Origin: Mobula hypostoma
Lineage: Eukaryota
Direction of reading: 5' to 3'
Length of the DNA: 64,000 nucleotides
Assembly (NCBI RefSeq): GCF_963921235.1
Contig: NC_086097.1
Coordinates: 168,394,001-168,458,000, forward strand
The position numbers and the translations under genes are program-made. The notes below the pieces were generated by a model, which saw nothing but the letters and a program-made list of their open reading frames with translations, did no database searches and had not been told where the DNA came from. Positions 5,263 through 59,748 of the stretch are shown here, piece after piece. The first letter of the stretch is position 1. Each line of letters opens with the position of its first letter.

Positions 5263-5298
5263 GGTACGTACACGGATTTCTTTAAACTGGGCAAGTCT

Positions 5299-5375: not shown

Positions 5376-5384
5376 CCAGTGAGT

Positions 5385-9392: not shown

Positions 9393-9644
<252 letters not shown>

Positions 9645-11980: not shown

Positions 11981-12196
<216 letters not shown>

Positions 12197-13020: not shown

Positions 13021-13466
13021 TGTGGATCCTTAAAGAAAGTACAAAGGAGGTGTGCAAGGCAAGTTTTTTTTATTTACACAGAATGCTGGGGGCCTGGACT
13101 GCACTACCAGAGGTGCTGGTGCGGGCAGATATTGTAGGAGTGTTTATTAGACTTTTAGATTGACACATGAATATAGAGAGAAGGGAAAGATATGGTCAAC
13201 GTGTGGAAAAGGAGGATTAGATTGGTAAAAATCATTGGTTTAACTCGTGCAGCACATCATGGCCAAAGGTCCTTTCCTGTGCTGTACTGTTCTATGTTCT
13301 ACATTAACTCCAGTCTTGGCACCAGATAGTTTTTAAAGCAGTAATTCTTTAAAGTTGAAGCAGATGTATCCACGTTTGAACAAAACTTTTAGTTGTTTAT
13401 GTACAAGCTGTACGTTTGGTGCTAAAAGTAAATGAAGGTTTTGTGATTGTGAATCTATAATGTTAA

Positions 13467-13559
<93 letters not shown>

Positions 13560-14689: not shown

Positions 14690-14860
<171 letters not shown>

Positions 14861-16198
14861 TAGATTCACAGATTTTTCTTAACCAAACATGCCCAAGGGA
14901 CTAAATGGACTTTTCCTGTTCCAGTGCCTTTCGCATCTTCTGGAATTTCTAAAGCATTGCCCAATCAAGTATTTTTGCGGTGTATCTATTGCAAAGTAAT
15001 ATAAAGTTTTTTTTACTTTAACCAGTACACCATGAAGAACTCTTATTAAGTATTTTGCATCAATTTAGAGAGAGAAAATGGTTTTAACATCTCATACTAA
15101 AGGCAGTGCAGCATTCCTCAATACTACCCTCTGGAGTTTACATTACACTTTTTAAGCATTCAGGCCCTCAGGTTTATTCGTGAATTCACCGAAGAAGCTC
15201 TGCCTTGTTGAATCTTGTTAATTTTGTTACTCTGTCATTCCTATCTTATCTATGCTTGAGCTGTTGTATCTACTAACTTATGCAGTTCTATGCACCATTA
15301 ACCTATTTTGGTTTAATTTTACTGTGTGTCTTTAAAGTTGAGGGACCTACTTGGCTTCCATGTCTACTACTTCTAAAGCTTAAAAAAATGAACCACTTTC
15401 TTCTCTACCTGTTACTGTCTCTCAGACTAATCCATTGAAATATCCTAAAATCTATCATTACCATTAAATTAACGAATCAACTTAATCTAATGATTCAGTA
15501 AATAGTTTTGTTTTATTATCCTTTGACATTGAATTCTGATACCCACCTTGGAATGTTTGGATAAATGAGAGTAGAATTCAAATCAGCTTATTTGTTTGGA
15601 TAAGGGATGATTATTACTTCACATGTAAAAAAAAATTAATTCTATAACATTATGGCTAATCTGATTGTAACTTAAACTCTGCATTCCTTCATATCCCCAG
15701 TAGTTTTTTCTCAAATCCCCTTGCCTGCCAAGAATCTTTCTTTGCCTTAAATGTACTACCATCCTTTGAGGAAAAAAAGTTCCAAAGATACATAGAATTC
15801 TATAACAAATCATATGGCTATGTATATCTCTTGAATATTTGATCCTTTAGTAACTCTGACTTCAGATTCTCCTAAAGAGGTAACATCCTCTCCATATCCA
15901 TCCTCTGAAGGTTTCTCAGGATCTTGTATGTTTTAATCAATATTCCTTTCACTCATGTAAACTCCAGTGGATGTTAACCTCATCTGTAAAGCTTTCCCTC
16001 ATAAGGCCACACTTTGTATAAAGAATATAAACATTGTCTGAATACCTTGAGTGAAGATAAAACTTGCCGTTAAAGGACTGTATGAAGAATTTTAGTTTTT
16101 ATCCTACTATTAATACAAAAAAGATGTTTTATTGTATGGTGAGAATACTGCAGACTTTGTATGCCCCTGTATGACATTCCTTTTCTGTGTTGCTCTAG

Positions 16199-16249
16199 GG
16201 GTGGGATGCTATTGAGTGGATAATTCAAAACTCTGAAAGTGTTAACTAA
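16199..16249 (+). CDS. PRELID3A: PRELID3A copy 1, C-terminal coding exon 6a (GWDAIEWIIQNSESVN*), giving a 171-aa isoform
   Basis: Polypyrimidine tract and ctctag acceptor, phase 0; resembles the mammalian PRELID3A tail as I recall it (GWAAIEWIIEHSESAVS). Confidence 0.85.
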   Translation, partial: GWDAIEWIIQNSESVN

Positions 16250-18482
16250 CAGCTTACACTTCTGCAATTTGCATTAACCAGTGGTAACTATTTATTGAAA
16301 TACCCAGCTAGTCTAATGTTTTATTGCATGTAATGGGCTCATGTTTGAGTGGCATGGACTGCATGTTTGTTATGCTTATAGCTAGCTATAATTTAGAAGG
16401 TGTGCTATCTTGTCATTAAAAAAATCAAATGTTTAATCTTTCAGCTGTATATATTTTACACCATGTGTTGCATTTTTCCCAAACATGCATTGATTATAGC
16501 ATCTATCCTCTGGTACTTAAAAAAATGATGTGCATTGTCTTGGGTGAATTTTGATAGAGAAGCAGGGTCATTTCAGAGTTTTGGGTCGTTGAGTGGTATC
16601 AGTTAGTGGCCACTCCTGAGGGATGATTATGAAAGAAACCTTGTTTGCTCGGTTTGAAGCATTAGATATATTTTATAGTGATAAGTTAATATAAAATTAA
16701 AATCTTTAAAATACTAAACAAGGTCTTAGTTTAGTACAAATTGTTACAGATTTTTGAGAGTTCTGTCAACTGCATTGTGTACTTTGAGTATTGAGGGTTA
16801 TTTTTTAACCCGAGAAAGAGAGAGAGGACAGCCACCTTAAACCTGAAATCACATTTGTTTCATTCGATCTGACTTTGAATGAATTTCTGGAACAAATGAT
16901 TAAGAGTGGACTGTTTAGACTATAGTGTCTGATTTATCAATGAAATCACTGGTGATTGTTAACATCCATCTTCCACATAGCCTCTTTAGAAAATCAATCT
17001 TGAATTTAAAATTAACTAAAGTTAATTAAGCTGAATTAATGACAGCTAAAGTTTGAAAAGCTGAATTTTGAGCGTACTTTAAACATTATGTCTATGGGCT
17101 TCAGCATCGATTATTCATGGCGAACGAGTTCCAGTTTCTGCCACCCTCATTTCTTTGGTTTCCTAACTTGAAGGATGAGCTGTAATTTTTAGACTCCTGC
17201 CCCTTTGGCTTTTTTGCCTACCTTGACTCCCGCATGTAAGATGACAGAAAGCTTGATTTCACAGAATCATACTGGACAGAAATGGGCTCTTTCAGCCCAC
17301 CTCTTTCTTGCTATCTGTGATGCCTACATAGTACTTGCATACTTTATGAACTTCTTTGGTTCTTTAACTTCAACTTAAGGCAATAGATGGAGATTGATGA
17401 CGTGCAGATATATTCTACTGTTTTTCCTTTTGGGAATCCAAGTATTTACTGAAGAGGATCTTTTATAAAGTTCTGTGACTATAGGAAAATAGATACTGTT
17501 TATATCCATTATTTTTTAAAGTTATCCATGGGATGATACTTGTGCAAGGGTTTTGCATGCCAAAATGTACTTTTCTATACATTTTGTGAGTAACAACAGA
17601 TGAATATTACAAAACCAAATTGAAATTATTTATTGCTTTAGATGTTAGCTTTTAATTTTAGTCAGTGATTTGTTTTGATAATATTTCTGTTCTGCAGGTG
17701 CATGACAGAAATATCATTTGTGTATTGGTATTTCATTGTGAAACTTGACCTGTATTTATTTTTAATTGTTGTAATTCAACCTTTGTTTTCCAGATTATAT
17801 TATCTTTCCTCCAGCCTGTGTATCCTCCAGACCATTCTAGGCATGTAATCTGAAACTGTTCTGCTGTTATGTACTGTAGCTAAGGAGTATTTTTTACTGA
17901 GAAAAACTTATTTCATCATTTGGTAGAAAAGCCAAGCATTGAAGAATAATACAAGTATATCTGTGTTAATCTTTCTCTCAGATTCTATGTGTAATGGCCA
18001 CAATTAGTTGAAAGATGCCTTGCATTTTGACTCATTTGTGCACATCCATTGTGGATTCTTTATCCCGTGCAAAGTTGGTCTTTCAAGTTGAATATAAATT
18101 AGTGATTTGCTTCAAAAAAGTACAGATGTAATTTTATAAGTTGTTCTTTGATAAGTCTGTGCATAGATAACAAATAGGAATAGGACTATGACAGGCAGCA
18201 GAAACAGTACTAATTCTGGAATCCAGAATTATACAGTATAAGGTTGCATAAAACAAGAGCATGAATAGGTCAGTCAATCAACCTTTGGAGTTCATTCAGT
18301 CAGATCATGGCTGATCCTGATCCAACCTAAGTCTCAACATTACTTTCCCATTTGCTCCCCATACCCTTTGATTCTTTTGTCAGTCACCATTTGATTCTAA
18401 TGTTCTCCTGGACAGAGAATACCTAAGATTCACGACCCTCAGAAGAACTTTTTCTTCATCCATCCTCAAACTTCTTATTCTG

Positions 18483-18682
18483 GCAACACACAAAATGCTG
18501 GAGGAACTCAGCAGGCCAGGCAGCATCTATGGAAAAAAATCCTGCTGAAGGGTCTAGGCCTGAAACGTCGCCTGTACTCTTTTCCATAGATGCTGCCTGG
18601 CCTGCTGAGTTCCTCCAGCATTTTGTCTGTGTTGCTTGGATTTCCAGCATCAGCAGATTCTCTCTTGTTTGTGATTTGACTC
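18483..18682. mobile_element. Short fold-back element made of two inverted Penelope-like tails
   Basis: ~50-bp inverted repeat (AAAATGCTGGAGGAACTCAGCAGGCCAGGCAGCATCTATGGAAAA and its reverse complement) around a degenerate hammerhead; flanked by the direct repeat CTTATTCTG (18474-18482 and 18683-18691). Confidence 0.75.
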
Positions 18683-19384
18683 CTTATTCTGAATGCCTAG
18701 ATGATATCTATGGAGAAGTATCTCTTCACAATCTTAAATATTTAAGTAAGATCACCACTCGCTATTCTAAACTATAATTACAACACCATATCCATCAACT
18801 TTTATCAATCTTTTCAAACCAGTTTTTGTTCTGTATTTAAGGAATTATATACTTGCCTGCAGTAAAAATGTATTATTTCTTAAGTAGGGAGTCAAATCTA
18901 TGTGCAGTAGTTCAGTTTCAGTCTCACACACTGCCCTGCAAAGCTGTATCAAATCTACTCCATGTTAATATTGTAAAAAATATTAGTCTTACTTATAGTT
19001 CCTATACCTGCATGCTAACCTTTTGGTGCTTCATGCTTTAGAATTTTCTTGGATTCCTTTGAACTGCATCATTTACTTATTCTATCACACTCTAACTAAT
19101 TATCCAATAATGGATAATCACATTTCCCCATAATAAATAGCAATTTTGAACCAGGCATCTATATTATTTCGCTCACTTCTCCTGGAGTAACAAGGCAATT
19201 GTCCTCTGTATGATTTAGGATCTGTAATTCATGCTTATAAAATGAGAGAGGTTACGATATTCCCCTTTAGAGTTAACGGAACATATTCCACTAATTCTCT
19301 CAGCAGTGAAGAAGTTTGCATTCATTTATCAGCACCTTTTAGTCTTAATTTCTGCTTAATTCCTTTATCTATGTTCTCTTTCAG

Positions 19385-30250: not shown

Positions 30251-30450
30251 NNNNNNNNNNNNNNNNNNNNNNNNNNNNNNNNNNNNNNNNNNNNNNNNNN
30301 NNNNNNNNNNNNNNNNNNNNNNNNNNNNNNNNNNNNNNNNNNNNNNNNNNNNNNNNNNNNNNNNNNNNNNNNNNNNNNNNNNNNNNNNNNNNNNNNNNNN
30401 NNNNNNNNNNNNNNNNNNNNNNNNNNNNNNNNNNNNNNNNNNNNNNNNNN
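30251..30450. other. Assembly gap (200 N)
   Basis: Run of exactly 200 N, typical of a scaffolding gap of unknown size. Confidence 0.99.
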
Positions 30451-32620
30451 GTTCTTACACGTGATATCACCACATTCTTCCTTTCCTTAACAACAGAAAC
30501 AAGTAGCCACATTAACCAGAACAAACGCATAATTTAACATGTTTTTATCAGTCTCTCTGGGGTTTACGAACACGAGGAGACCTTCTAAGTGGTTCACACA
30601 GTTCTTGTGTTTTGTTGTTATTTCCATGTTTTGTCTGGTTTGCATCAGTTAACTAAAACTCTGAAGTTGGCTCTTTCTTTAGGTCTTTGTGATTTCTTCT
30701 TAACACTGCTCCTTCGTCTGTTTGGACCATGTATGACCTGGGTTGTACTTCTTCAAGTACTGTAGCTTTCTTAATTCCTTCCACTTCCGCTTGTAATGAA
30801 ATACGAATCTTCTTTTCTTCATCTAATTTATTCATTCACTGTGTAATCTCTTTTTTATGCTGAGACTTCATCATTTCAATAACACTTCTCAATTCCTTCA
30901 CTTGTGCTTTCACTTCTTCAATTGGATCCTGATTCTTGTCATTCTTTGGCTTCAGATCAGTATTGTACTGTACCGGCAAGTTTGGCCTCTGTCCTCCTGC
31001 AGAGGTGAGATTGTGATGGAATGCATGGCCCATTGATGCATGTGCATTACTTCCAGAGGGCAAAATTGCAACTCCTGGTTGTGGTGGCAATGCTTTGCCA
31101 GATGCTGGTAACAAAAGGGATGGGTCTGGGAGTTTTCTTTATGACTTCTGAGCCATTCTATTCTGTCACTGTATTCTGACTCTGTCACTGTCCAGGACTA
31201 AGACTCTTTTCACCAAATTCAGTCTCTCACAGACAGATAGACCCAGTATTGACTGTACATTCTTTGGCACCACCACAAATGAAAGCATGTGCACAATATT
31301 TTTGTGTGATACTTTTACCACACATGTTCCTTTAACTGGAAATGTCTGCACCTGAATACCCAGTCACTTTTACATTTGTCTTATATAACTTTGGCTTGGC
31401 TTTAATACATTAAACTCAGATTCTGCAAGAATATTTACTTGTGCTTCAGTATCAAGCACAAACAGAATATTGTTTTGGTTCACTTGCAATGGAATAGTCC
31501 AGTCATTCTTACTTTGTTTTCACAGAGCATATCTATATAAAACTCCTCAAGTTCATTTTCAAGCACTGAGTTTACTTGTTTTATTTTCATTCTACTTCTG
31601 CAACAGAGTGAAAAATTATTACTGTTACCGCAGTTGCTGCACATTTTCCCATATGCTGGACACTGTTTAGGTCGATGCTGCCCACAGCGATCACATAGCT
31701 TAATTCTCTCAGATGACGTCTTGCTCTCTGTCGGTTTTGTTGTCGTATTATTATTTATTCTAATACGTGTTCGCACTTTTTCACAGCACAGCTCTGAATG
31801 AAAAGCACTTTAGCCCGTGACATCATGGTTTCTGAAGCTTTGCAAAGCATCAAAGCTTTTGCTGTCTAAATCTTGTTCTCTTAACAGTCTTTCTCTCACA
31901 CCATTATCCCAAATGTCACAAACAACTCTGTCTTTAGTGAGAGAGTCTGTCAGTTCTGCAAACTCGCATGATTTACTCCTGTGTCTCAACTCCATAATAT
32001 ATTGATCAATTGTTTTCAGCAGCTCTCTACGCACGTGTAAAAAATTTATGCCTTTCATACGTCACATTACGCTTCGGTATGCTTTAAATTTGTCCATTAT
32101 CGATTCCAATTTCAAATTACCTCCATCTTCAAAAATAAAGTGATTATATACCTCAATTGTGTCATCACCTATTATGTGGAGTAGAAGCGCAGCTTTTGTT
32201 TTTCCGGTTTTCTATCAGCTTCAATCGCCGATAAATATATTTCAAAACACTGCTTGAATTTTCTCCAGTTCTCAGCTACATTCCCAGTCAGCTGAAGTGT
32301 CAGTGGAGGTTGCAAACCTTCCATTTTTAAAACTGTTAGCGAACACCAAAACAGTTTGAACTCTTTTTTCTTCGATTATCTTCGCTTCTCCCATGTTAGT
32401 GAACATATTATTCTTCCAGACCGACTTCTGACACCATGTTGTGTTCTTAATATTTATACGTACCGTGGGTTAACAATCATATTCTGGAAGAATTAGAACT
32501 TTTATTTACAGCAACAAAACAAAACCATGTTTTTACCAAGCCATGTTCCAGATCATTCTATCATTTCTGCGCATGCTTAGAGCTCTCTCCAATCACGTTC
32601 TTACACGTGATATCACCACA
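30451..32620 (-). mobile_element. Mirror copy of the Gypsy-type LTR element (3' LTR cut by the gap)
   Basis: Reverse complement of 34353-36517 with a few small indels. Confidence 0.88.
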
Positions 32621-34352
32621 GTGGCCACTCATTTTAATTCCACTTCCCATTTCCATTCCTCCTCCACTGTCGTGATGAGGCCACACTTCAGGTTGGAGTA
32701 ACAACACCTTGAATTCCATCTGGGTAGCCTCCAACCGGATGGGATGAACATGATTTCTTGAACTTCCGGTAATCACCACCCCTCCTTCACCTTTCCCCAT
32801 CTCCTTTTCCCTCACTCACCTTATCTCCTTGCCCGGCCATTGCCTCTTCTGGTGCTCCTCCCCCTCTTCTTTCTTCCATGGCTTTCTGTCCTCTTCTATC
32901 CAGATTTCCCCTTTCTCTTTCACCAATCAACTTCCCAGCTCTTTACTTCATCCCTCCCCCATCTTTTAAATCTGCTCAACTACTTTTCTCCAGTCCTGCC
33001 GAAGGGTCGCGGTCTAAAACGTCGACCGTACTTTTTTTTCCCATAGATGCTGCTCAGCCTGCTGAGTTCCTCCAGCGAGTTTGTGGTGTTTTGCTTTGAT
33101 TTCAGTTGAGCCTAATTTGTCTAGCAGATTCCAAACATATTTGAAATTAAATCCATTCTAGGGGGGTTGAATTGCTTTTTTAAATGTGTGTCTACAGTTG
33201 GGTTCACCTTTTGGAGTGAAAATACAATTGCTACAGCTCGGAAGTGGAAGTGATGCCAGGAGGTCCACTGAGCACTTCACCATATGGTTACCTGGCAGAT
33301 TTATGAAACGCAGAGGAATCGAGCAAATAAATGGATTCGACGAAAAGAAGCGTGAAAAGCATGCAAAGACAACATGATGGGCACAGAAGGTCAGCAGCGG
33401 CACAGGCAGAACAAAAGCAGAACATGGTCAACCTATTAGCTCCGGAGGAGTCAGATAAACTTTACCCGGTGTTTTGTTGGTCAGTCTACCTACTCACCCA
33501 GACTCGGTGACGTCACTGACCAACAAAACACCGGGTAAAGTTTATCTGACTCCTCCGGATGGTTGACCATGTTCTTGCTTTTGTTCTGCCTGTGCCGCTG
33601 CTGCCTTCTGTGCCCATCATGTTGTCTTTGCATGTTTTTCACGCTTCTTTTCGTCGTCATTTATTTGCTCGATTCCTCTGCGTTCATAAATCTGCCACCA
33701 TATGGTGAAGTGCCATAACCTCCTCCACTCTCACTTCCGAGCTGTAGCAATTGTATTTTCACTGCAAAAGGTGAACCAAACTGTAGACCCATTTAAAAAA
33801 GCAATTCAACCCCCCTAGAATGGATTTAATTTCAAATATGTTTGGAATCTGCTAGACAAATTAGGCTCAACTGAAATCAAAGCAAAACGCCACAAACTCG
33901 CTGGAGGAACTCAGCAGGCTGAGCAGCATCTATGGGAAAAAAAAGTACGGTCGACGTTTTAGACCGCGACCCTTCGGCAGGACTGGAGAAAAGTAGTTGA
34001 GCAGATTTAAAAGATGGGGGAGGGATGAAGTAAAGAGCTGGGAAGTTGATTGGTGAAAGAGAAAGGGGAAATCTGATAGAAGAGGACAGAAAGCCATGGA
34101 AGAAAGAAGAGGGGGAGGAGCACCAGAAGAGGCAATGGCCGGGCAAGGAGATAAGGTGAGTGAGGGAAAAGGAGATGGGGAAAGGTGAAGGAGGGGTGGT
34201 GATTACCGGAAGTTCAAGAAATCATGTTCATCCCATCCGGTTGGAGGCTACCCAGATGGAATTCAAGGTGTTGTTACTCCAACCTAAGTGTGGCCTCATC
34301 ACGACAGTGGAGGAGGAATGGAAATGGGAAGTGGAATTAAATGAGTGGCCAC

Positions 34353-36683
34353 TGTGGTGATATCACGTGTAAGAACGTGATTGGAGAGAGCTCTAAGCAT
34401 GCGCAGAAATGATAGAATGATCTGGAACATGGCTTGGTAAAAACATGGTTTTGTTTTGTTGCTGTAAATAAAAGTTCTAATTCTTCCAGAATATGATTGT
34501 TAACCCACGGTACGTATAAATATTAAGAACACAACATGGTGTCAGAAGTCGGTCTGGAAGAATAATATGTTCACTAACATGGGAGAAGCGAAGATAATCG
34601 AAGAAAAAAGAGTTCAAACTGTTTTGGTGTTCGCTAACAGTTTTAAAAATGGAAGGTTTGCAACCTCCACTGACACTTCAGCTGACTGGGAATGTAGCTG
34701 AGAACTGGAGAAAATTCAAGCAGTGTTTTGAAATATATTTATCGGCGATTGAAGCTGATAGAAAACCGGAAAAAACAAAAGCTGCGCTTCTACTCCACAT
34801 AATAGGTGATGACACAATTGAGGTATATAATCACTTTATTTTTGAAGATGGAGGTAATTTGAAATTGGAATCGATAATGGACAAATTTAAAGCATACCGA
34901 AGCGTAATGTGACGTATGAAAGGCATAAATTTTTTACACGTGCGTAGAGAGCTGCTGAAACAATTGATCAATATATTATGGAGTTGAGACACAGGAGTAA
35001 ATCATGCGAGTTTGCAGAACTGACAGACTCTCTCACTAAAGACAGAGTTGTTTGTGACATTTGGGATAATGGTGTGAGAGAAAGACTGTTAAGAGAACAA
35101 GATTTAGACAGCAAAAGCTTTGATGCTTTGCAAAGCTTCAGAAACCATGATGTCACGGGCTAAAGTGCTTTTCATTCAGAGCTGTGCTGTGAAAAAGTGC
35201 GAACATATTAGAATAAATAATAATACGACAACAAAACCGACAGAGAGCAAGACGTCATCTGAGAGAATTAAGCTATGTGATCGCTGTGGGCAGCATCGAC
35301 CTAAACAGTGTCCAGCATATGGGAAAATGTGCAGCAACTGCGGTAACAGTAATAATTTTTCACTCTGTTGCAGAAGTAGAATGAAAATAAAACAAGTAAA
35401 CTCAGTGCTTGAAAATGAACTTGAGGAGTTTTATATAGATATGCTCTGTGAAAACAAAGTAAGAATGACTGGACTATTCCATTGCAAGTGAACCAAAACA
35501 ATATTCTGTTTGTGCTTGATACTGAAGCACAAGTAAATATTCTTGCAGAATCTGAGTTTAATGTATTAAAGCCAAGACCAAAGTTATATAAGACAAATGT
35601 AAAAGTGACTGGGTATTCAGGTGCAGACATTCCAGTTAAAGGAACATGTGTGGTAAAAGTATCACACAAAAATATTGTGCACATGCTTTCATTTGTGGTG
35701 GTGCCAAAGAATGTACAGTCAATACTGGGTCTATCTGTCTGTGAGAGACTGAATTTGGTGAAAAGAGTCTTAGTCCTGGACAGTGACAGAGTCAGAATAC
35801 AGTGACAGAATAGAATGGCTAGAAGTCATAAAGAAAACTCCCAGACCCATCCCTTTGTTACCAGCATCTGGCAAAGCATTGCCACCACAACCAGGAGTTG
35901 CAATTTTGCCCTCTGGAAGTAATGCACATGCATCAATGGGCCATGCATTCCATCACAATCTCACCTCTGCAGGAGGACAGAGGCCAAACTTGCCGGTACA
36001 GTACAATACTGATCTGAAGCCAAAGAATGACAAGAATCAGGATCCAATTGAAGAAGTGAAAGCACAAGTGAAGGAATTGAGAAGTGTTATTGAAATGATG
36101 AAGTCTCAGCATAAAAAAGAGATTACACAGTGAATGAATAAATTAGATGAAGAAAAGAAGATTCGTATTTCATTACAAGCGGAAGTGGAAGGAATTAAGA
36201 AAGCTACAGTACTTGAAGAAGTACAACCCAGGTCATACATGGTCCAAACAGACGAAGGAGCAGTGTTAAGAAGAAATCACAAAGACCTAAAGAAAGAGCC
36301 AACTTCAGAGTTTTAGTTAACTGATGCAAACCAGACAAAACATGGAAATAACAACAAAACACAAGAACTGTGTGAACCACTTAGAAGGTCTCCTCGTGTT
36401 CGTAAACCCCAGAGAGACTGATAAAAACATGTTAAATTATGCGTTTGTTCTGGTTAATGTGGCTACTTGTTTCTGTTGTTAAGGAAAGGAAGATGTGGTG
36501 ATATCACGTGTAAGAACGTAATTGGAAAGGGTTCTGAGCATGCGCAGAAATGATAGAATGGTCTGGAACGTGGCTTGGTAAAAACGTAGTTTGGCTTTGT
36601 TGCTGTAAATAAAAGTTCTAATTCTTTCAGAATATGATTCTTTATTGTTAACCCACGGTACGTATAAATATAAGAACACAATA
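34353..36683 (+). mobile_element. Non-autonomous Gypsy-type LTR retrotransposon (gag, protease, captured host sequence, integrase C-terminal remnant)
   Basis: LTRs 34353-34536 (TG...CA) and 36494-36683 (TG...TA); PBS TGGTGTCAGAAGT at 34537; PPT AAGGAAAGGAAGA at 36481-36493; TSD GCCAC (34348-34352 and 36684-36688); gag GNVAENWRKFKQ; Zn knuckles; protease FVLDTEAQVNIL; PRSY...LRRN motif. Confidence 0.92.
35807..36205 (+). pseudogene. SH3KBP1: Captured intronless fragment resembling the C-terminal coiled-coil region of SH3KBP1/CIN85 (CD2AP family)
   Basis: [52 protein letters not shown] versus the human SH3KBP1 tail as I recall it ([53 protein letters not shown]); one in-frame TGA at 36131. Confidence 0.8.
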
Positions 36684-36984
36684 GCCACTGGGAGATGTGC
36701 TCGGCGAAGCGACACTCTCCAATCTACGTCGGATCTGACCAATATGCAGGAGGTCACACCAGGAGCACCGGACACAGTATATGACCCCAACAGACTCACA
36801 GGTGAAGTGTCGCCTCACCAAAAGAACTGTTAATGGCCCTGAATGGTAGTGAGGAGGAGGTGTTGGGCAGGTGTAGCACTTGTTCCGTTTGCAAGGATAA
36901 GTGCCAGGAGGGAGATTAGTGGGGGGAGGGGAACAAATGGACAAGGGAGTCACGGAGGGAGCGTCCCTGTGGAAAGCAGAAAGG

Positions 36985-36985
<1 letters not shown>

Positions 36986-37050
<65 letters not shown>
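36986..37050 (+). repeat. (TG)n microsatellite inside the Penelope-like element
   Basis: ~32 TG units. Confidence 0.95.
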
Positions 37051-37053
<3 letters not shown>

Positions 37054-38229
37054 GGGGGGCGCGGGGAGATGTACTTCGTGGTGGGATCCTGTTGGAGATG
37101 GTGGAAGCTGAGGAGAATTATGTGCTGGACACAGAGGCTGGTGTGGTAGGTGGTGGAACAAGAGGAACCCTATCCCTGGTAGGGTGGTGAGAGGATGGGG
37201 TAAGAGCAGACGTGTGTGAAATGGAAGAGGTGTGGTTGAGGGCAGCGTTGATGGTGGAGGAAGAGGAAACCCCTCTCTTTGAAAAAGTAGGACATCTTCG
37301 ATATGGAATGAAAAGCCTCATCCTGACAGCAAATACGGCGGAGACTCAGGAATTCAGGGAAGGGGATGGCATTTTTACAAGTGACAGGATGGGAGGAGGT
37401 ATAGTCCAGGTCCAAACAGTCCTTTCAGGTGAGGCGACACTTAACCTGTGAGTCTGTTGGGGCCATATACTGTGTTTGGTGCTCCCAGTGTGGCCTCCTG
37501 TATATCAGTGAGACCCGTCATAGATGGGAGACTGCTTTGCCAAGCACCTACACTCTGTCTGCCAGAAAAAGTGATATCTCCCAGTGACCACCAATTTTAA
37601 TTCCACTTTCCATGTCTAATCATGGCCGTCTCCACTGTCGTGATGAGGCTACACTTAGGGTGGAATAATAACACCTTATATTCCGTCTGGGTAGCCTCCA
37701 ACCTGATGGCATGAACATTGATTTCTGGAACTTCTGGTAGTGACCCTTCACCTTTCCCCATCTCCGTTTCCCTCTCTCACCTTATTTCCTTGCACTCCAA
37801 TTCCCTCCCTCTGGTGCTTCCCCCCCCCCCACTTTCTCCCATGGCCTTCTGTCCTCTTCTATCATACTCTCCCTTCTCCAGCCTTGTATCTCTTTCACCA
37901 ATTTCCAAGCTTTTTACTTATCGCTCCCCCTTCAGGTTTCATATATCACCCTTTGTTTCCCTTGTCTACCGCTCCCCCCACTTTTTAAATCTACTCCTCA
38001 GCCTTTTCTCCAATCCTGCCGAAGGGACTCGATCCGAAACGCCAATTGTACTCTTTTCCATAGATGCTGCCTGGCCTGCTGTGTTCCTCCAGCAGTTTGT
38101 GTGTGTTGCTTGTATTTCCAGCATCTGCAGATTTTCTCATTTTTCAACTGAAAACAAGCCCACTTCTTCAATAAAGTTTGCACGTACAGTGTAAGCGGGG
38201 CAAAATACTCTCAGCAAGTTACTAACAGG

Positions 38230-44757: not shown

Positions 44758-46519
44758 TGTCATGGTCTGGATCGGGGTCCCTTTAAATTTCCTTGTTTAT
44801 GTTATGATCCGGACTGTTGATTCCCTGTTTTCCCGTGTCCCTCGACTTTGGTGATTAGAGGCAATTAACGCTCGGCTGAACCGATAGTTTATAGTCTCCA
44901 GCTTTCAGCCGTTCAGCGTGGGAGCGTCTGCAAAGCCATCTAAGGTACGGTGTGCCGATGTCATCTGGCCGGAGCAAGTCTAGTCTCTGCCGAAGCGAGT
45001 GCCGGTAATTCGCCTTTTCCTCACCGGAGCAACCCTGTCCAGTTACCTCACCAAAGTGAGCCTGCAAAGTTTCCTCACCGAGGTGGGTCCGTCAGTTAAC
45101 CCACCGGAGGGAATCAAGAACCGCTGTTTACCGTTTCTGGGCCGAGTCGAGAGCTCGCCACTACCCAGAGGCTCCAAGTCAAGTCCTGGCTCTGGGGGCA
45201 TTCAAGTACCAAGTCAAGTACTGGCTCCGGGGGCATTCAAGCACCAAGTCAAGTCCTGGCTCCGGCGGTATTCAAGCACCAAGTCAAGTCCTGGCCCTGG
45301 TGGCATTCAAGCACCAAGTCAAGTCCTCGCCCTGGCGGCATTCAAGCACCAAGTCAAGTCCTTTCCCTGGCGGCATTCTAGCACCAAGTCAAGTCCTGTC
45401 CCTAGTGGCATTCAAGCACCAAGTCAAGCCCTGGCCCTGGCGGCATTCAAGCACCCAGTCAAGTCCTGGTCCTGGCGGCATTCTAGCACCAAGTCAAGTC
45501 CTGTCCCTAGTGGCATTCAAGCACCAAGTCAAGTCCCGGTCCTGGCGGCATTCAAGCACCAAGTCAAGCCCTGGCCCTGGCGGTCTGTGATTCCTGTCCT
45601 ACCCCTTGTCTGAATCCCTCCTCTACCCCTCTCGCCTCTAGCCCTCATCTGCAGCCCCCGCCTGCACTTCGGTCTAGTTCCATCGCTGAAGCTGGATAGG
45701 TACTGTCTGGTGTTCATTCGTGTTGGTCTTGTCTTGTCTTGTCCTCGCCTCCGTGGGGTAAGTCAGGCCATCTTGCCATTGCTCCGCAGGGGGTCATGTT
45801 CTGTCTTGTCTGGTCCTTTCCTCCGTGGGGTAAGTCAGGCCGTCTTGCCGTTGCCCCGCGGGGAGTCATGTCTTGTCTTGCCTTGTCCTCGCCTCCATGG
45901 GGTAGGTCAGGCCGTCTTGCCATTGCCCCGCGGGGGGGGGGTCATGTTTTGTCTTGTCTTGTCCTTGCCTCCGTGGGGTAAGTCAGGCCATCTTGCCGTT
46001 GCCCCGCTGAGGGTCATGAGTCCCAGCCCTATGTCCTGTACCCAAGGAGGGGTCCCGGCTCTCTGTTCTATGTGTGAGTCCCGGCCCTATGTCCTGTACC
46101 CAAGGAGGGGTCCCGACTCTGTGTTCTGTGTATGTGTCCATGGTTCCATGTACCTGCTCTCCGGAGACCGAGGCTCTGTGTTCCTATGTTCCTCCTCTCC
46201 CTAGCCCATGTCATGTCCATGCCTGGTTCTGGGGTCCAAGCCCGAGGCAAGACCCAGGTACTGGGTTTTGCCCAGTCTCTGGCTCGGAGTCCATACCCTA
46301 GCCTCTTCATGTCTCCTCTAGTTCTGGGAGCCGATTCCAAGCCCAAGCCCAGACCCTTAGTCCCAGCCTAGTTGTAGTCCTGAATCCTTGTCCAGTTCGC
46401 TATTCCTGCTCCTGCCTTGCTCTCCTGGTATCGAACAATAAATTAAATCTAAGTAACCTCACAAGATGTGTCTTGCATTTGGGTCCACCCTTGCTCCCAA
46501 TACCCCCATCATTGTGACA
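44758..46519 (+). mobile_element. Complete 1762-bp solo LTR-like element with internal minisatellites
   Basis: TGTCA...TGACA termini; 5-bp TSD TAAAC (44753-44757 and 46520-46524); AATAAA at 46437. Confidence 0.8.
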
Positions 46520-49500
46520 TAAACCTATGTAGTTCTAAGGTAAGAACATGTTCAACACAGCTTTGTGAGCTGAAGGGCCTGTATTGTGCTGTAGGTTTTA
46601 TATGTTTCTATGTTACAGTTTTGTCTCAGTTCTCTGCTCCGTGCATACAGTAGATGACCATGCTGATCTTCAATTGGAATATTCCTTATAATTCCTTATT
46701 ATCCCTTTGCTCTTAAAATATCCGTAGAAACCCTTAAGATTCTCCTACACCTTGTCTGCCAGAACAATTTCATGCCTTCTTTTATTCCTCCTGATTTCCC
46801 CCTTATGTACCCACACACAGCTCTTACACTCTTCAAGCACCTCAGTTGTTCTCTGCTGCCTGTACTTACTGTGCACCTTTGTTTCTTTATAACCTCAATA
46901 ACTCCAGAAAACCAAGGTCTCCTAAACCTGTTAGCCTTGCCTTTTATTCTACAGGAACATACAAATTCTGTTCTCTCACTACTTCAACACCACCTTTGAA
47001 TGCCGCTCACTTCTAAGCATCACTTTGTCAGGAAACAACCTATCCCAAAACACATTTGCCAGATCCTTTCTGATGCCATCAAAATTGGCCTTTCACCTAT
47101 TTAGAATCTCAAACCGAGGACCAGACCTATCCTTCTTTATCATTATCTTGAAACTAATGGAATGAAACACTAGTTTCAAAGTTGGAAATATAATTATGTA
47201 CAAAAGATTAAGAAAACTTGAAAAATAATGATAAGTGCCGTATTGGGTTTGATATAAGAATAAAAACACAAAGTTCAGACTAAAATAAAATGATTTGGTT
47301 TAGCCTATCTGGTTGGAAATGCTAGGAAATATATCAGCTGATCAGATGTGGGAATATTTGAAATTAGAATGCAAACAAACCCTTCATGGATGAATAAGAA
47401 ACATCTTCTTGGGGTTATAAATTTGTTTAAAACAATTTTTGACTCCTATCAGAAAAACAGCTGAAATCACACAAAACTGTTTTACCAGGTAGACAAAAGA
47501 AAGGAAAATCACAGTTACAAATTACGACGGGGATAAAGCATGCTATCTTCCTAAACGGTAGGTAGATAGATAAGATACTTAATTGATCCCAAAGGAAATT
47601 ATAGTGTCACAGTAGCATTACAAGTGCACAGATATGCCAATATTAGGAGAGGTAAGAGTTGACGTGTCTGTGTGAATGATAGCGATAGATGAACGACTGT
47701 ACCTTATTACTAACGTTCTTATGCCAGTAAACACATAACGGACTGCTCTCGGCGGCGAGTGTTGTTGAAACTCTAACTCTTGCCACGCTCAGCCGTCTGC
47801 TGCTATTTAAAAATAACAGATCAGGAGATGGCTAAGCGTAATTTTGTCTTCTTACTGGTGACCTTTTAATTTATTTTAACATTTTAAGTGTAAGGCTGCA
47901 AGAATTTTAGCAGAGCCTCCAACTCGTCTTAGTGCACTTTCAACCCTCGTAGTCACCGGAACTGCTCATTGATACCGATATTAATGCGTCTTGCGCCATG
48001 ACGCACCTCTCACCCTGCACAATTGATTCATCATAAACCCCAGTCCCAACTCAACAAAGTAACTTTGACTCAAGCCCAAACCTTGACATGGGCTTTCTCG
48101 CCACTTTGCTTTTCCGTATTTGCAAATATTTCTATTTTTGTTTTTTTGTACTGGTTTTCATTATTGTTATAACTTTCCTTTCTATTTTCGACCTAGAATC
48201 CTACTTGCCTAACTACCAAGTATTTTAGTGGCCATTGCCAATAGTCATTCACTGCGCGAGATCAGACTAAGCAAAACTGTCGACGTGACGCTGAAATAGT
48301 ATGGAATGAGATAGAAGGTGAGGCAGATTACAAACGCATCTAAATTCGAGTAATTATGGTTTAATCATTTTTGGATATTGCAAAATACATGATAAATGAA
48401 CCGACTTTCTCTCTTAGTTTGTGGATTCCTTGGGAATGGCAAATGAATTGCTGTCGCGGAATACCAAAGTTGCGTGGGATTTTTCTAATTGCGAAAGGGA
48501 GTTTTTAAGGTCTTTATCCAGCACTGCTAACAACAAAGCGCTGTGGGTTATTTAGCAGAAACTCTCGCCGGAGTCCCACATACTAATAATTTTTTTGGAC
48601 GGTTATCCATCAGACTAGATCATACAGATTAAAAATAAACAAAATCATAAAACAGTGCAGCAATAAACATCAAAACATTTAAAAAGAACTGTACAAATTT
48701 ATTAACACCAGATCCGAAATATCGGTTAACTTTTCAGATGGGACCTGTTCTTGGAGCGTCTAATTAACGTTAATCCAACAAACACTGACCTTCATTATAC
48801 TTTTCTGCTTGTAAGATTTTTACTTTACTAATTTTAGGGTTAGTCGTCTGGGCGAGGACTTCTTCCTCATCAGTAACATAATAGGATTATTTGAAATAAG
48901 CAGATCTAAACTGATCAAAGACAAATTGACAAAAATCTGAAATAATGGATGTTTACTGAGTTCAGAAATAGGATGTCTTTTTAAGTTTCAAAATTTATTT
49001 GATAAGAGTTTCCTCGTGTGTTGTGCAAGGGAACTTGTATGTATCACTTCTTTGCCTTTCACAGGAACTGTCAGAACAATACTGAGACACAAGAGGGAGC
49101 AGATACTCTAACCCGGAGCGAAAAAAATCGAACTGCTGGAATAACTCAGCCGGGACCCTCCTTCTGCCTTTACAGATGCTGCCTGAGTCGCTGAGTTTCT
49201 CCGGGGAGGGGTGTTTAAACAACACTAGTAATCTCAATTTAAAACGCTGGATGCTCTGAGCAGGATCTGTTGAAATCAGATGAACAGTCATCGAAATAAA
49301 ACATTAACTCAAGTGTTGCCAGTTCAGATGCTGCTTAAACCGTCCGGTATTCCTATGCCATAAATATTAGTGGCTGCCTGTAACTGAAACAATTCCAAGG
49401 ACTGCAATAGTCGGGATGGAGAATTGAAAGATGTCACTGACCACCGTCATTGGGGACGAAGACGGAGGCGGGGCTGGACGTGGCGCGAACGTGCGCTGGG

Positions 49501-50296
49501 GTGGGGGAAGAATGCGCGCTCGTAGCCGCGGCGAAGCGGCTTGGGTGCGCGCTGATGGGCTCGGTGCGAGTCCACGGCTCGAGAAAAGAGTAAACTCAGT
49601 AGATCCTACAGATGCTGGAAATTTTAAGCAACACACAAAATGCCAGGGGAGCTCAGCAAGTCATGGAACATCTATGGAGGGGAATAAACAATCGACGTTT
49701 CTGGCCGAGCCCCTTCATCAAGGCTGGTATGGAAGAAAACAGATGTCATAATATGAAGGTGGGGTTGGGAGAGGAGTACAGGCTGGCAGGTGATAGGTGA
49801 GACCAGCTGAGGGGGAACGCGGGTGGGGATGAAGTGGGAGGGTGAACGGGTCGGGGATAGGAAATGAGGTAAGAAACTGAGAGGGGATAGGTGAGAGAGG
49901 TAGAGGGTTAAATAAGAAGGAATCTAATAGGAAAGGACAGTGGACCATGGAAGAAAGGGAAGGTGGAGGGAAATCAGAGAAGATGATGGGGAATGGTAAT
50001 GAATAGAGAGAAGGGTGCGAGGGTGACCAGAAATTAAAATGGAAAGAGAGGGGGAGTAAAATTAATCCTTTAAAATGTACAGAGTCTTCCCTACTGCCAT
50101 AGTGAGGCCAAATTCGGGTTGGAGGAGCAACACCTCATATTCCGCCTGGAGGTACGTACACGGATTTCTTTAAACTGGGCAAGTCTGTGGGCGGGACTAT
50201 GGGAACGAGACGATTGGCTGAGCAGGGGAGATTGTGGGCGGGACGACGCGGCTGACGGACCTACCAGTGAGTGGGACTATTTGTCGGGAGAATGAA

Positions 50297-50334
50297 CAGC
50301 CGACGTTTCGGGCTGAGACCCTTCATCAGGACTG
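50297..50334 (-). ncRNA. Minimal hammerhead ribozyme motif (duplicate of 5409-5446)
   Basis: Same sequence as copy 1. Confidence 0.65.
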
Positions 50335-51716
50335 AAAAGGAAGAGGGCAGAAACCAGAGTAGGAAAATGCGTGGAGGGGAAGGAGAGCAAGCTGGCAGGT
50401 GATAGGTGAGACCAGGTGAAGGGATGAAGTAAGAAGGTAGGAGATGGTCACCGGGAGTTCCTGCCATTTGCGGCGGATAAAGCGGTCTCCTAATCTGTAC
50501 CGGGTCTCACCGATTTAGAGGAGGACACATCAGGAACCCCGGCATACTCACAGGTGAAGCGTCGCTCACCTGGAAGGACCGTCTGGGGCTCTGAATAGTC
50601 ATGAAGGAGGAGGTGTAGGGACAGGTGTAGCATTCGTCACAGGTAAAAGTAGAGAGCGATTCCTGCGGAAAGGGGTGGGGGAGACGTTGGGTGGAAGGGA
50701 AAGGTGTGTTGTTGGAGCTGGCGGAAATAATGAAGAATGATGTACTGGATCCGTCGATTCGTGGGGTGGTAGGTAAAGGGGAGGGGAACTCCATCTCTAA
50801 TATGGTGGCTGGAAGATGTGGTGAGAGCAGATGTGCTGGAAATGGAGATGTGGGTGAGGGCAACATCGACAGTGGTGGAAGGGAGACCACGTCCTTTGAA
50901 AGAAAGAGGCCATCTCAGATGTCCTGGGATGGAAAACCTCATCCTAAGAACACATGCGGTAGAGGCGGAGGAATTGAGAGAAGGAAGAACCATTTTTTTT
51001 CAAGTGCCGGAATGGGAAAGAGGAATAGTCAAGATAGCCGTGAGAGTCAGTAGATTTGCAAAACAAATCTGTAACCAGAGATGGAGACAGAGACAGAGAG
51101 CTCGAGAGCAGTGTGCGAGGTGGACCAAGTAAATTTGAGGGCGGGGTGGAAGTTCAAAGTAAAATTGATGAAATAGGCGGGCTCAGCACGGGGTACAGGA
51201 AGCAGCACTGATGTAGCGCTGAAAAAGGTGGGGGGCGTTAACATTTTAGGCTTGGAACATGGACTATTCTACGTAGCCTACGAAAATGCAGACATAGCAA
51301 GGGCCCCTGGCTACGCATTTAATTTGGAGAAAATGGGAAGCGTCGAAAGAGAAATGGTTGAATGTGACGATTAATCCGAGGAGGGGAGCTGGTTGAAAGA
51401 AAGAAGCAGAGAGCTTTAACGGTGGCTGAAAACTGTAGGAGTGGGCGTTCTATGGGCGTCGCGTAAACGTTGTCATGCACGCCTGCCCTGGAGGCGGAGC
51501 GACGGGCGGCAGCGCGCCCTGGTGCTCGCTCCCACGGATGGCAGCGGCTGAATCCATCTCCTCCGGAGCGGAGCCGCAGCTCGAGCCCGGCGCCGGTTAA
51601 CTGGCCGTTTGTAGTCACGGAAGCCGCCGAGTCTGTCGGCGACCGGGCCGGTCACTGAGGGCTGTTGGCGGACGCAGCGGCCGCTGCTGCAGCCGCCGGT
51701 GCCGCAGAACGACGAC

Positions 51717-51748
51717 ATGAGGATCTGGAGCTCGGAGCATTTGTTCAG
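51717..51748 (+). CDS. PRELID3A: PRELID3A copy 2, coding exon 1
   Basis: Same as 6829-6860. Confidence 0.88.
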
Positions 51749-54280
51749 GTGATCCGTCGGCCCGCGAGTAACTGGCTGGAGGTGGAGAGGGGTGGCCCGG
51801 CCTCTCCGAAAGTAGGGGGAGGAGGATGGGGAGGGGGTTAGGGTGATGTCCCGGATTCTGCCGTGGTCTCGGGCAGAGGTGCAAACGTCCGGTACTCACC
51901 TTGATGTAAGAGGAGCGTGTCAGGCAGCATTTGAGAGGCAAAAGGACTGATGCAGGGTCTCAACCCGAACCGTCAACTTTCATACTCTGTCTCCACACAG
52001 GCTAATCGACCCGCTTTGAGTCTACCCGATTCCAGCGCCTGTTGTCCCTTACCCTTACTTTGCTGTGGACTCGTCGAAGAGATAGCTTGCCCTACTGATT
52101 AAGCTGGTGTAGGTCGGGGTATGCAGGCTTTGGCTATGAGGCGAACGTTATTCATCTTTACCACAGTTATGTTCACCTCAAAACTGACCATTTTTCCTTC
52201 TGTTTAAGATCTAATTTGCACTCAAATCTTTGTGCCATTTGTAGTTTTATGCTCCTGGTTGTAGTCGTTGCATTTATTATAGCCATGACTTCTTTGAGCT
52301 TCATGCAGATAATGAATCTCACTGCGCCTTATGGTATATGATAAACTAATCATATATTAAAGTGTATTACATGATATAAAAGGATCTGCCTTGACAAAGA
52401 AATTTGTCATAAGCTGGAGTGATAGGAAAATGACAGCTTGATTTGAAAGGCAAATTAATTGCAATGTGTCTCTTTCCCAGCTGCAACTAATTCATCTGGG
52501 AAATATCTACAATAATAAACCTTATGTTTGGAAAATAGATTTGGGCTGCAGTTGAGGCAAAATATCTACCTCTTTGTAACTACACTGGTCCAATGAAATA
52601 ATGGCCACGCATCATGCAGATGTCCTTGAAGATTTATTTTTATATCTCTCTCTCTTTCTTCAGCAGACACCGTGAAAACTACAAGAAAATAAAAGACATA
52701 AAAAGTTTGAAACATACATCTCAGTCTTTTAAAGTCTCTCAAGCTAGTGTCTGCTGGTAAACAGGCCCAAAACACGTCAGCACAACAGAAGTGTGCTGAA
52801 ATCAAATAAAGTCACTAAAAACTTATCACACTGTCCATATAAAGGCATGTCAACAACATTATACACAATATAAAACAAATAAAAACAATTACCATGTGTG
52901 CCTCTTGGACCACATGCAGAATAAGGTTATTTTAGGGCCATGTGTCTTTCTCTGCTTCCAGATTGGTTCTGACCCATAATGCTACAGTCATGCTCTTAGT
53001 AAACTCTGGTCATGTGACCCATTACACTCTACATTAAATAACACCTTACATAAAAAGCACAAAATTTTTAATCAAACATTATTTAAAGATTTTTAAAAAG
53101 TCATAAATTTATGACAAAAACATATAAAATAAACATCGCAATGAAACATGTCTCCGAGACAGTTACACTCTTATCCAAACTTAGAATCTCAGCCACTTTG
53201 TATTTAGCCCTGGCTTATTCTTGCTTCAAAAGTTACTAGCTCAAATTCCACATGAGATTTCTGCTCATATTCAGGACTGACACATGAAATGCATATTGAG
53301 ATGCAGATATTTCATTGAGTTTCAGTTCTCTCTCAAGTACACTTAAAAGGTGCACAGCATTATCTGAAGATCAGCACTTTTTCTCATTTTATGTACTGCT
53401 CTTTGGAGCAATGATGTCACATTTATTGATGACATCCAAATGGAACCTGCTGCCACTTCTCTGGTCATCTGTTGTATTTAAAATACAATATGTCTTGTAC
53501 TTTAAGAGCAGATAATTATTTGGTAGACAGAAGCAATTGTCTTGGGAGCCTGATGTTTCAGTTGAATTGGATGGTTTGGAACTATACTTGACTTAAAAAT
53601 GTGTTTTTGAGGATATATTTGGTTCATTACCAAGAACACCTGCTTCAACATCTGTAATCTCACCTGGCTCTATTCCTCTCTCAGTTCATCTAATGCTGAA
53701 CTCTTCATTCATGCCATGATTACTTTAGGAATTGACTAGTCCAACTTCCTAGCCACTGTGAAATTGCTCTCAACCAAAATCCCATTATCTTTGTTCTAGC
53801 TCTCACAAAGCACGGTACAGACATTAGCACTGTCTTTGAGACTGATAATGACTTCCAGTCCAACAATGTTTTTTGTTAGTTTTCAGACTCCTGCATGACC
53901 TTGCCCTATTGTGATGTGCTGTCATAGTAAGTCATGTGGCTCACAACATTGTCTATTCATTTGGTAGAAATGTTTGGAGAAAATGTGATTTGATTGTGAA
54001 CTTGTGAGGAATACATTTTGGTATAGAGAAAGGAGAATCACAATTTCTCCTGGAGTTAAACAACTTGATATCTTTGTAGTTGATTTCTAAGCTGTAGTGT
54101 ATTTTACGTCTTTTTTCCCTGAGTTTTTAAAAATTAGAAGTACTTGTTCATGCATTTTAGATTATTATTGATTTTTATGCTAGATTTAAACTTTTTTAAA
54201 CTTTGAATCATGCAATGCAGGAAGAGGCCATTATCCCTTCTATGACCAAATCATTTTATGTTGTGCGGTGATCTCAGTAA

Positions 54281-54532
<252 letters not shown>

Positions 54533-56868
54533 TAATACTGACACCTTTTTTTTGTATTGTATGTCCAAAATCAATAGGAAGTTTTAAAAAACAAAAATGT
54601 TTACTTATATGAATGTAGAGACTTTAGGAGAATTGGCACAGTTGCTCCTTCTGAAGTAGATATTAAACTGGAAAAAAAATCGATAAAGTTTGATATAGTG
54701 ATGATCTGTCAATTCAATTAGTTTTAACATTTGAGGATGACATAGTTTCTGACCTTGGGTGCTGTCTGTGTACAGTTTGTATGTTCTCCCTGTGAACACA
54801 CACTTCAGTTTCCTCCTTTGTCACAAAGACATGCTGGTAAGTTAATTGGCTACTGTAGATTGCTCCTATTGTAGATCAACGAAAGTAGAATTGGTGAAGT
54901 AGGTAAGCATGTGAGAGAAAACTGTGCATTTCACTGTATGAGTCAATGTGCATGTGATAAATAAATCTGAAATAGGATACAGGGGAGAATGGGACTGACA
55001 GGATTGATCTAGACCTGGTGAGTAATTATAATTAAAATGATCAATTTTAGAAGTAATGTTTGTTCAATCCGAACAGAGAACAATGAAGGCATTAGGACAG
55101 GTTGCCTGTGAAAGACTGGCAAACTATTAAAGGGTATGATAAAAGGCAAGGAGTGACTAGCACTTAAAAATGTTCTGATAATGGTTCTCTACCCAAAATA
55201 TCAACTCTCCATTTCCCTCCATAGATGCTGCCTGACCTACTGAGTTCTTCCAGCATTTTGTATGTTGCTGCAGATTTCCAGCATATATAGTCTTTCTTGT
55301 GTCTGCATTTAACAAAATAATATGTTTGTAAAAAGAAAAATTCCTTCCATTTGAAAATATGGTCCTGCAGATTGCAGAGAAAATAAATATGGTATTAGAT
55401 CTTGGAGACTTAAAGTAGCCAGGAAAGGTAGAAATCCTGAAGACTGAGAACATTTTAGAATTTGACAAAGTATGGCCATGAAGTTGAAGGGGAAAATCAA
55501 ACATTAGAGTAAACTTATTAAAAAGACAATAAGAATATCTTTATCCATGTTAAAAATGTCTATTAGTTAAAAGAAAAACAGTAGCAACAAGAAATGGGGG
55601 TCTGTTACATAGATGGTGGATTTATAACAGGAAATGAGAAAATGACAGGTAATTTATTAAGTATTATTATTGTTTGGCTTTGGTAAACAAAATACAAGAA
55701 ACATTATAAGTGATGAAGAAATAAGGGTACAGTTTGGATGAGAAAATGAAAGAAGTACTGCTAGAGAAGATAACAAATCTGAAAGCTGGTAAGTCACAAG
55801 AACCTGATAATTTGCACTTCAAACTTTTGAAAGAAATGTATACAGAGGTGGTGGATGCTCTGAGATTTCTTGCAGGACTCTATAGATCCAGGAATGATTC
55901 TTGTAAATTGGTGGATAATATATGCAGCCTCACTTTTTAAGGAAGCAGAGCGAAAATTGGAAGCTACCTGTTAGCTTGACATCAGTAGTTAGCATAACTC
56001 TGGATCCTCAATAAAGGATGTGCTATCAAGACACTTAGACTCATATTAATTGTGCATTTTATTATGAAGAGGAAGTTGTATTAACTCATCTATCAGAGTT
56101 TTTTTGAAGGTGTGTCCAGAGAATAGATTAGGGGAAATCAGTGGAGGTGATGAAAAGGATGCAAAGGCTGAGAACTTGGAGAAAAATGATAGAAGAAAAT
56201 CTGAGCAAAAATGTCAGATTTCCATGATGAGCGATTGATAACACTCAGTATAAACTTACATGTAACTAAACCCACCTATCATGGCATTTTGTTTTTTTTC
56301 TGCAGGCTTTTATCTTAAATGCAACGTTTCTCTATACTTGTAGCATAGGTCAGTTAAAATAATTAGAATGTTTTTGGCTTGGTGTAAAATCAAAACTACC
56401 TAGCCTGCTTTTCAAACAAATTTTAAATGTGGCAGTTGAGAAGCAATTTAAAAAATGCAGGCAATGGAAGCTGAAAATAAGAGCATATTTCTAGAAATTC
56501 TTGATAAGTTAGGCAGATCTGTACAGAAAGAACAGTTTCTCAGTTAACTTTATTTTTCTTCCTACTGAAAACAAGAATTTCCAGCATTCTTTTGCATTAT
56601 AAATGTCAATATTGTTCGCAGCGATTGCTCCAACTGTCATTGCTGCAATGTTGTATTAAAATATGTACACTGTCTTAATTGCATTTACTATTATGTATTA
56701 AAAATGACTGCAATGTCTGGTGTGAATTCAAATGTTGTTTGCTGTCTGTGCTTCTATTACATTTTTTTTCTGGATTGAGGGAATTTGACATTTTACAGAA
56801 CTTGAATCTCAATTAATGCCCCAGTGAGTTGATTCATATGGTAATCTTTTATAATATGTTTTTGTTAG

Positions 56869-57084
<216 letters not shown>

Positions 57085-58354: not shown

Positions 58355-58447
<93 letters not shown>

Positions 58448-59577: not shown

Positions 59578-59748
<171 letters not shown>

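Follow-up and report, generated by a model that had tools for sequence, protein, structure and literature searches.

A Gypsy family of Mobula hypostoma whose RT, RNase H and integrase core is replaced by spliced SH3KBP1 sequence

In the acutely transforming defective retroviruses, host coding sequence stands in frame behind gag (Gag-onc fusions), the replication genes are lost and propagation depends on a helper. LTR-mediated retroposition with secondary mobilisation is also known in animals, as set out in the available part of Tan 2016 (PMC5131818). In the chimeras described there, a partial spliced mRNA substitutes part of the internal ORF, both LTRs are kept, the junctions show microsimilarity and the switch lies near an exon boundary; multi-gene chimeras occur, and the products are re-mobilised as non-autonomous elements. 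Copy numbers in that part of the source are low: 18 insertion sites for nine fly retrocopies, and one to five copies for maize Bs1, an LTR element with several host-gene pieces that was re-amplified and has common switch points.

A Ty3/Gypsy family of Mobula hypostoma is described here, starting from one copy in a 64,000-nucleotide stretch of contig NC_086097.1 (the window). The family shares the features listed above, the switch near an exon boundary being found at a captured RABEP1 piece that begins at an exon's first bases. Unlike the cases in the available text of Tan 2016, about 44% of its ~500 members carry cargo, at least 17 in-frame variants recur and the origin is common to several ray genera. 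Unlike Bs1, it is a vertebrate family of well over a hundred copies, and both of its cargoes are in frame with gag (PMC5131818, same part). The mechanism is thus already known; the scale, the two-gene mosaic and the frame bias are unusual. The family resembles the Gag-onc retroviruses in its host coding sequence in frame behind gag, its lost replication genes and its presumed helper dependence, but it is a germ-line Gypsy without env, its cargo is a non-catalytic coiled coil and no host effect is evident. It also resembles the K02A2.6-like single-ORF Ty3/Gypsy elements (P0018-P0020): over the well-matched segments of gag, protease, RT start and integrase tail, identity to P0018 is 42-71%. Unlike these, the window element is without RT, RNase H and integrase core. 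No description of the ray chimeric family was found in the openly accessible literature searched.

When LTR elements capture a host gene, the chimera is usually known from one or a few copies; the present family is a fossil population of an estimated ~200. The parent, both donor genes and many intermediates lie in one genome, which provides a record of successive template switches. The family permits a direct count to decide if a non-autonomous LTR element depends on an open Gag frame in cis. It also bears on what captured domains are selected for, their function or their sequence likeness.

Anatomy of the window copy and source of its insert

The coordinates of all features are given in Table 1. 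The element was assigned to Ty3/Gypsy by its direct LTRs with TG...CA ends, its primer-binding site, polypurine tract and target-site duplication (TSD) of the 4-6 bp class, and by its gag and protease together with a parent of the order PR-RT-RH-IN. A first-pass annotation had already recognised a Gypsy-type element with LTRs of ~185 bp, both cis-signals and a GCCAC TSD, and this description holds. The primer-binding site presumably fits the 3' end of tRNA-Leu. Gag and protease match the single-ORF Gypsy polyprotein P0018, and the protease also matches Pfam aspartyl-protease models; in Pfam, the SH3KBP1 piece, gag and the integrase tail had no matching family. With its own RT, RNase H and integrase core absent, the window element is not an autonomous Ty3/Gypsy.

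Table 1. Features of the window copy and of its inverted duplicate (window coordinates)
Feature	Position	Strand	Remarks
Gypsy element	34353..36683	+	2,331 bp, flanked by two GCCAC copies
Left target-site duplication	34348..34352	+	GCCAC
5' LTR	34353..34536	+	TG...CA, 184 bp
Primer-binding site	34537..34549	+	TGGTGTCAGAAGT
gag	34649..35451	+	CCHC-like end; matches P0018 aa 1-275
Aspartyl protease	35452..35794	+	Pfam PF13975 (E 3e-6), PF13650 (E 3e-5)
RT-start remnant	35795..35820	+	behind in-frame 147-nt deletion at shared TGAC
5' switch tract	35821..35836	+	parent RT and captured sequence alike at 14/16 nt
Captured spliced SH3KBP1/CIN85 3' coding region	35821..36204	+	Pro-rich stretch, then coiled coil
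SH3KBP1 exon pieces	35821-35864, 35865-36114, 36115-36178, 36179-36204	+	
3' switch microhomology	36198..36204	+	AGAAAGC; host last exon = parent integrase tail
Integrase C-terminal tail	36205..36435	+	in frame with host piece
Polypurine tract	36481..36493	+	
3' LTR	36494..36683	+	190 bp
Right target-site duplication	36684..36688	+	GCCAC
Inverted duplicate of window insertion	30451..32620	-	99.6%, same 5' flank, cut by N gap

The two LTRs of the window copy differ at 13 of 183 aligned bases, and its 3' LTR terminates in TA, where other copies have CA. Five frameshifts (near 34895, 35105, 35455 (gag), 35785 (protease) and 36410 (tail)) and three in-frame stops (34945 in gag, 36131-36133 in the SH3KBP1 piece and 36314 in the tail) were counted; broken eight times, the copy is dead, in agreement with the earlier view that it does not code now. 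That view had also placed the switch away from element sequence at ~35807. The switch is real, but the host sequence begins at 35821, and 35807-35820 belongs to the element's own RT-start remnant. The 147-nt in-frame deletion in the RT start lies at the TGAC of 35803-35806 and is common to 28 copies.

The insert had been taken for the terminal coiled coil of SH3KBP1/CIN85. In a protein search with 938 candidates, 15 of the 16 matches were full-length SH3KBP1-type proteins of rays and sharks, the best being a ray SH3KBP1 labelled Mobula hypostoma (P0002, 93% aa); SH3KBP1, and not Gypsy pol, ranked best. Against the human SH3KBP1 coiled coil (PDB 5ABS/2N64), the insert gave an E of 2e-14 when its stop was entered as X. 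The host SH3KBP1 gene lies at G000:C18:80.87-80.91 Mb, and 371 of the 384 bases of 35821-36204 are identical to its exons (G000:C18:80,902,168-80,909,855). The piece consists of one exon's end, two whole exons and the last exon's start; three GT-AG introns (4180, 1087 and 2037 bp) are precisely gone and the exon-exon joins are exact, which bears out the proposal that an intronless fragment of several host exons was taken from spliced mRNA. It ends four codons short of the host stop, without UTR or poly(A). A weaker SH3KBP1-like exon (58% aa) at G000:C2:30,664,721 probably belongs to the paralogue CD2AP.

Parent, junctions and spread of the family

A full-length parent, such as the first-pass annotation had proposed to seek, was found by RT search in the same genome: it is 84-92% identical to the protease region of the chimera, is 4.4 kb long and has the same LTRs, and all 20 copies that were fetched whole are decayed. 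Parent bases 1633-3899 (2267 bp; RT/RNase H/integrase) are missing from the chimera and the host piece stands instead. At the 3' junction, the proposed microhomology (a shared KA) is present and its extent is greater than supposed, with 7 nt (AGAAAGC) common to parent and host mRNA. The two main 5' junctions have microhomologies of 14/16 nt or 5 nt. The 5' tract of the chimera carries the host form, which fits an RT that copied the mRNA first and then landed on element RNA.

It had been suggested that the chimera was inserted as a unit and may form a family. Its 3' junction was found at 138 genome places (at most 2 mismatches; none in the reversed control), three of which represent the window insertion together with its copies in local duplications. 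Of the 39 chimeric copies with both LTR ends, 34 are flanked by a 5-bp TSD (at most one mismatch), and 31 different 5-mers are represented. The family has spread to well over a hundred sites. In these respects it has the marks of an LTR-mediated retrocopy: secondary mobilisation with common junctions and new TSDs, microsimilarity at the fusion points, replacement rather than interruption of part of the element, no poly(A) or inner TSD, and precise removal of three SH3KBP1 introns and one RABEP1 intron.

For a cargo-blind sample, the first 91 of 495 exact matches to an integrase-tail motif were classified: 46 retain the core, 27 carry SH3KBP1, nine carry both host genes, four carry RABEP1, two are plain deletions and three are unclassifiable. 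Host-piece carriers thus make up 40/91 of this sample (about 44%) and plain deletions 2/91; extrapolation to a family of roughly 500 members suggests about 200 cargo-bearing copies.

Beyond the first-pass annotation, the family contains a second captured gene, many 5' junction variants and a frame bias. The 5' junction occurs with 147 more bases of RT start, in the window form, with 45 more host bases and no RT stub, and in shorter forms. The RT-stub and longer-host forms are not interconvertible by deletion, which implies that parent RNA or host mRNA took part in later switches. In a gag-protease tree of 90 of 146 copies (those covering at least 780 of 850 bases), junction types are intermixed with parents, as recombination predicts, with rough support. 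Of the 118 copies that bear SH3KBP1, 113-115 retain the coiled-coil part, whereas the Pro-rich part, which some lineages deleted, is present in about 60. Five miniature chimeras of ~0.8-1.2 kb (L090, L105, L164, L184 and L193) lost gag and kept the LTRs and partial SH3KBP1.

An unexplained segment in 6 of 40 copies chosen by their 3' junction was identified as RABEP1 residues 61-172 (Pfam Rabaptin, E 3e-28; 95% aa to ray RABEP1). This piece consists of two exons with a 9-kb intron gone, and its switch microhomologies are 6 and 8 nt. RABEP1 was found at 30 loci, alone at five and joined to the SH3KBP1 coiled coil at 25, most of which are RABEP1-SH3KBP1-RABEP1 sandwiches. The gag end runs directly and in frame into RABEP1, with the protease lost, in at least six copies (L160, L180, L181, L187, L233, L269, L309, L315). 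SLU7 was not found as a third cargo when the middle parts of 127 cargo-bearing copies were compared with 50 kb of the SLU7 locus, a comparison that a short or rare piece could escape, and no other cargo gene was indicated by common unexplained segments of at least 25 nt. The apparent insert of L296 was rejected as a cargo; it is an ordinary short repeat inside a plain deletion.

Reading frame and competing explanations

Structural junctions common to at least two independent insertions were collected from the 127 cargo-bearing copies, and 17 of 17 are in frame, including internal deletions in host sequence and in the RT start. Fifteen of them were scored in frame by script; by direct translation, one flag (RT stub to RABEP1) was overruled and one junction was added. 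One out-of-frame junction was left out of the count because its three copies have one TSD (a segmental triplicate). Common tail deletions are multiples of three in 3 of 3 cases. As a crude null, the available microhomologies are in frame in a fraction of 0.38-0.42, and the junction events are not fully independent of one another. In 30 of the 80 copies with an SH3KBP1 3' end, one nucleotide is deleted four codons from where the host piece ends; counting this deletion, the score is 17/18, and its frequency implies that the integrase tail need not be in frame. A stop near the RABEP1 piece start occurs in 15 of 35 copies, a frequency above that of C-to-T change at CpG codons elsewhere; its linkage is weak (p 0.03), and part of the RABEP1 lineage may have multiplied with its cargo untranslated.

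In gag and protease, the few chimera-specific changes (4 non-synonymous, 3 synonymous; p 0.44) do not point to purifying selection, and every part has changed neutrally since insertion (N+stop/S 2.3-3.8). A dN/dS contrast between subfamily changes (48 N:68 S) and singletons (p 2e-22) was rejected because the singleton baseline is biased; 93 of 100 subfamily-level changes occur in parents too, and the synonymous bias comes largely from parent sublineages. While the family multiplied, it was likely important that the frame stayed open through gag and most of the cargo, but not through the integrase tail.

We consider it probable that this non-autonomous family, with spliced SH3KBP1 replacing RT/RNase H/integrase, arose by template switching, was spread by parent enzymes and was selected for an open Gag-fusion frame. 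In the proposed course of events, element RNA and SH3KBP1 mRNA would have been packaged together. While synthesising the minus strand, RT would have switched from the integrase tail to the mRNA at AGAAAGC, copied ~430 nt of it and landed again on element RNA at a short match after the protease, giving the junctions that are observed. As its LTRs, primer-binding site and polypurine tract stayed intact, the short chimera could be integrated by the parent at many sites, where distinct TSDs are found. Repeated switching between chimeras and parents would have remodelled the 5' junction and lost the Pro-rich part in some lineages, and the SH3KBP1 coiled coil would have been spliced into a separately captured RABEP1 coiled coil; the resulting structures are observed, and this is their probable order. 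Successful variants retained an open frame from gag through the host piece; the simplest cause may be that RNA stability or packaging required translation to near the 3' end. Once inserted, the copies decayed neutrally.

How much of this needs selection on the cargo can be weighed from the same data. A wholly neutral history, in which two lucky captures gave short RNAs that replicate well and the in-frame junctions reflect codon-phased similarity, agrees with the neutral decay of all parts, with the common late frameshift and RABEP1 stop, and with in-frame microhomologies that somewhat exceed one third; it appears unlikely, since common length changes are in frame in 17 of 18 cases against an expectation of about 0.4. 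At the other end, the coiled coil itself may have aided the element and so add to the reading preferred above: behind Gag-protease it would take over multimerisation from the lost RT/integrase and promote assembly or packaging of the short RNA. Each of the two independent captures is a helical oligomerisation region, the RABEP1 N-terminus being presumably a dimeric coiled coil; the coil outlasts the Pro-rich part, the late frameshift spares nearly all of it, and cargo carriers outnumber plain deletions 40:2. The CIN85 coiled coil trimerises (PMC10786037, available part); in HIV-1, RT promotes Gag-Pol dimerisation (PMC11998509, likewise), and a leucine zipper behind the protease raises Gag-PR multimerisation and cleavage, although it lowered particle yield (PMC3291649, in the text available). 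Against this, just two founding captures underlie the 40:2, which are not 40 independent events, and retention is inflated by the sampling of most copies through 3'-side or coiled-coil anchors. Coiled-coil codons are also richer in purine and A (0.70 and 0.46, against 0.52 and 0.32 in the Pro-rich part) and would suit microhomology with an A-rich element. The copies that join RABEP1 to gag without protease, the frequent early RABEP1 stop and contigs of two other organisms that cut the coiled-coil end also speak against a benefit, which we regard as a tentative possibility. That a Gypsy lineage twice swapped RT-integrase for a host coiled coil, shuffled both into a longer helix and gained a replicative advantage is likewise conceivable rather than expected; if true, the family would be a natural, selected counterpart of the laboratory construct in which a leucine zipper replaces Pol.

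Two further readings were weighed against selection for an open Gag-fusion frame after template switching. LINEs are abundant in these genomes, as stated in the accessible part of a preprint (bioRxiv 10.64898/2026.10.27.761883), and a LINE-made SH3KBP1 retrocopy might have inserted into, or recombined as DNA with, a resident Gypsy copy. An L1-type processed pseudogene would not account for the piece, which is without 3' UTR, poly(A) or TSD of its own, ends before reaching the host stop codon and continues directly as integrase tail; it stands in place of 2267 bp of parent instead of interrupting them, and microhomology is found at both ends. This origin is largely refuted and extremely improbable. 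Domestication by the host, either as dominant-negative restriction factors against the parent or as modulators of CIN85/Rabaptin complexes, could draw on the lower HIV-1 particle yield with a zipper behind the protease (PMC3291649, same part), on three stingray chimeras annotated as genes and, weakly, on a contig from a run guessed to be RNA (X16) that joins the protease to the SH3KBP1 piece. It is very unlikely: stops and non-synonymous changes pile up at neutral ratios, no conserved single locus was identified, and neither the window copy, with its eight breaks, nor the copies in bulk, without purifying selection, look like a domesticated Gag-derived gene.

Age, other rays and surroundings of the element

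The median LTR distance is 8.1% in 39 chimeras and 9.0% in eight parents (p 0.40), which indicates that both were active in one old period. Annotated proteins with the same junctions are present in two stingray genera, Hemitrygon (P0005, P0062) and Hypanus (P0063), and these 'uncharacterized' and 'RABEP1-like' gene models are explained as transposon chimeras. The residues of the insert side with devil-ray and stingray hosts against sawfish, and one residue changed in the Mobula-labelled host SH3KBP1 is retained; with the stingray chimeras, this pattern suggests that the capture preceded the split of these families. The 3' junction is bridged by contigs from public runs of two other organisms, with more than 31 bases on each side, and is thus no assembly artefact. 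Contigs of two other organisms (runs X14 and X8) skip about 36143-36280, with ~10-13 other letters between; this variant, in which the coiled-coil end and tail start are lost, is absent from the sampled G000 copies. Deep cover in the runs guessed to be RNA is host mRNA.

Within the window, the minus-strand copy (Table 1) is not an independent insertion. It belongs to a 6-kb inverted duplication (30451-36517, 98.3%, centred near 33484) that adjoins a gap of 200 N (30251-30450) and a GGC run. The palindrome may be real or the product of a fold-back error in assembly. A tandem duplication of 44.9 kb with 99.98% identity (window 1-19112 and 44889-64000), which either arose very recently or was produced in assembly, places a further copy of the element upstream of the window (L002). 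Two neighbouring element copies were rejected as new insertions, both being duplicates. Elsewhere, one short chimera is present three times with an identical target site (L165-L167, G000:C9:86.0-86.4 Mb), as a segmental triplication. Directly to the right of the window element lies a widespread interspersed repeat (36747-37500) that has inverted arms and a GT microsatellite; the element seems to be nested in a repeat of this type.
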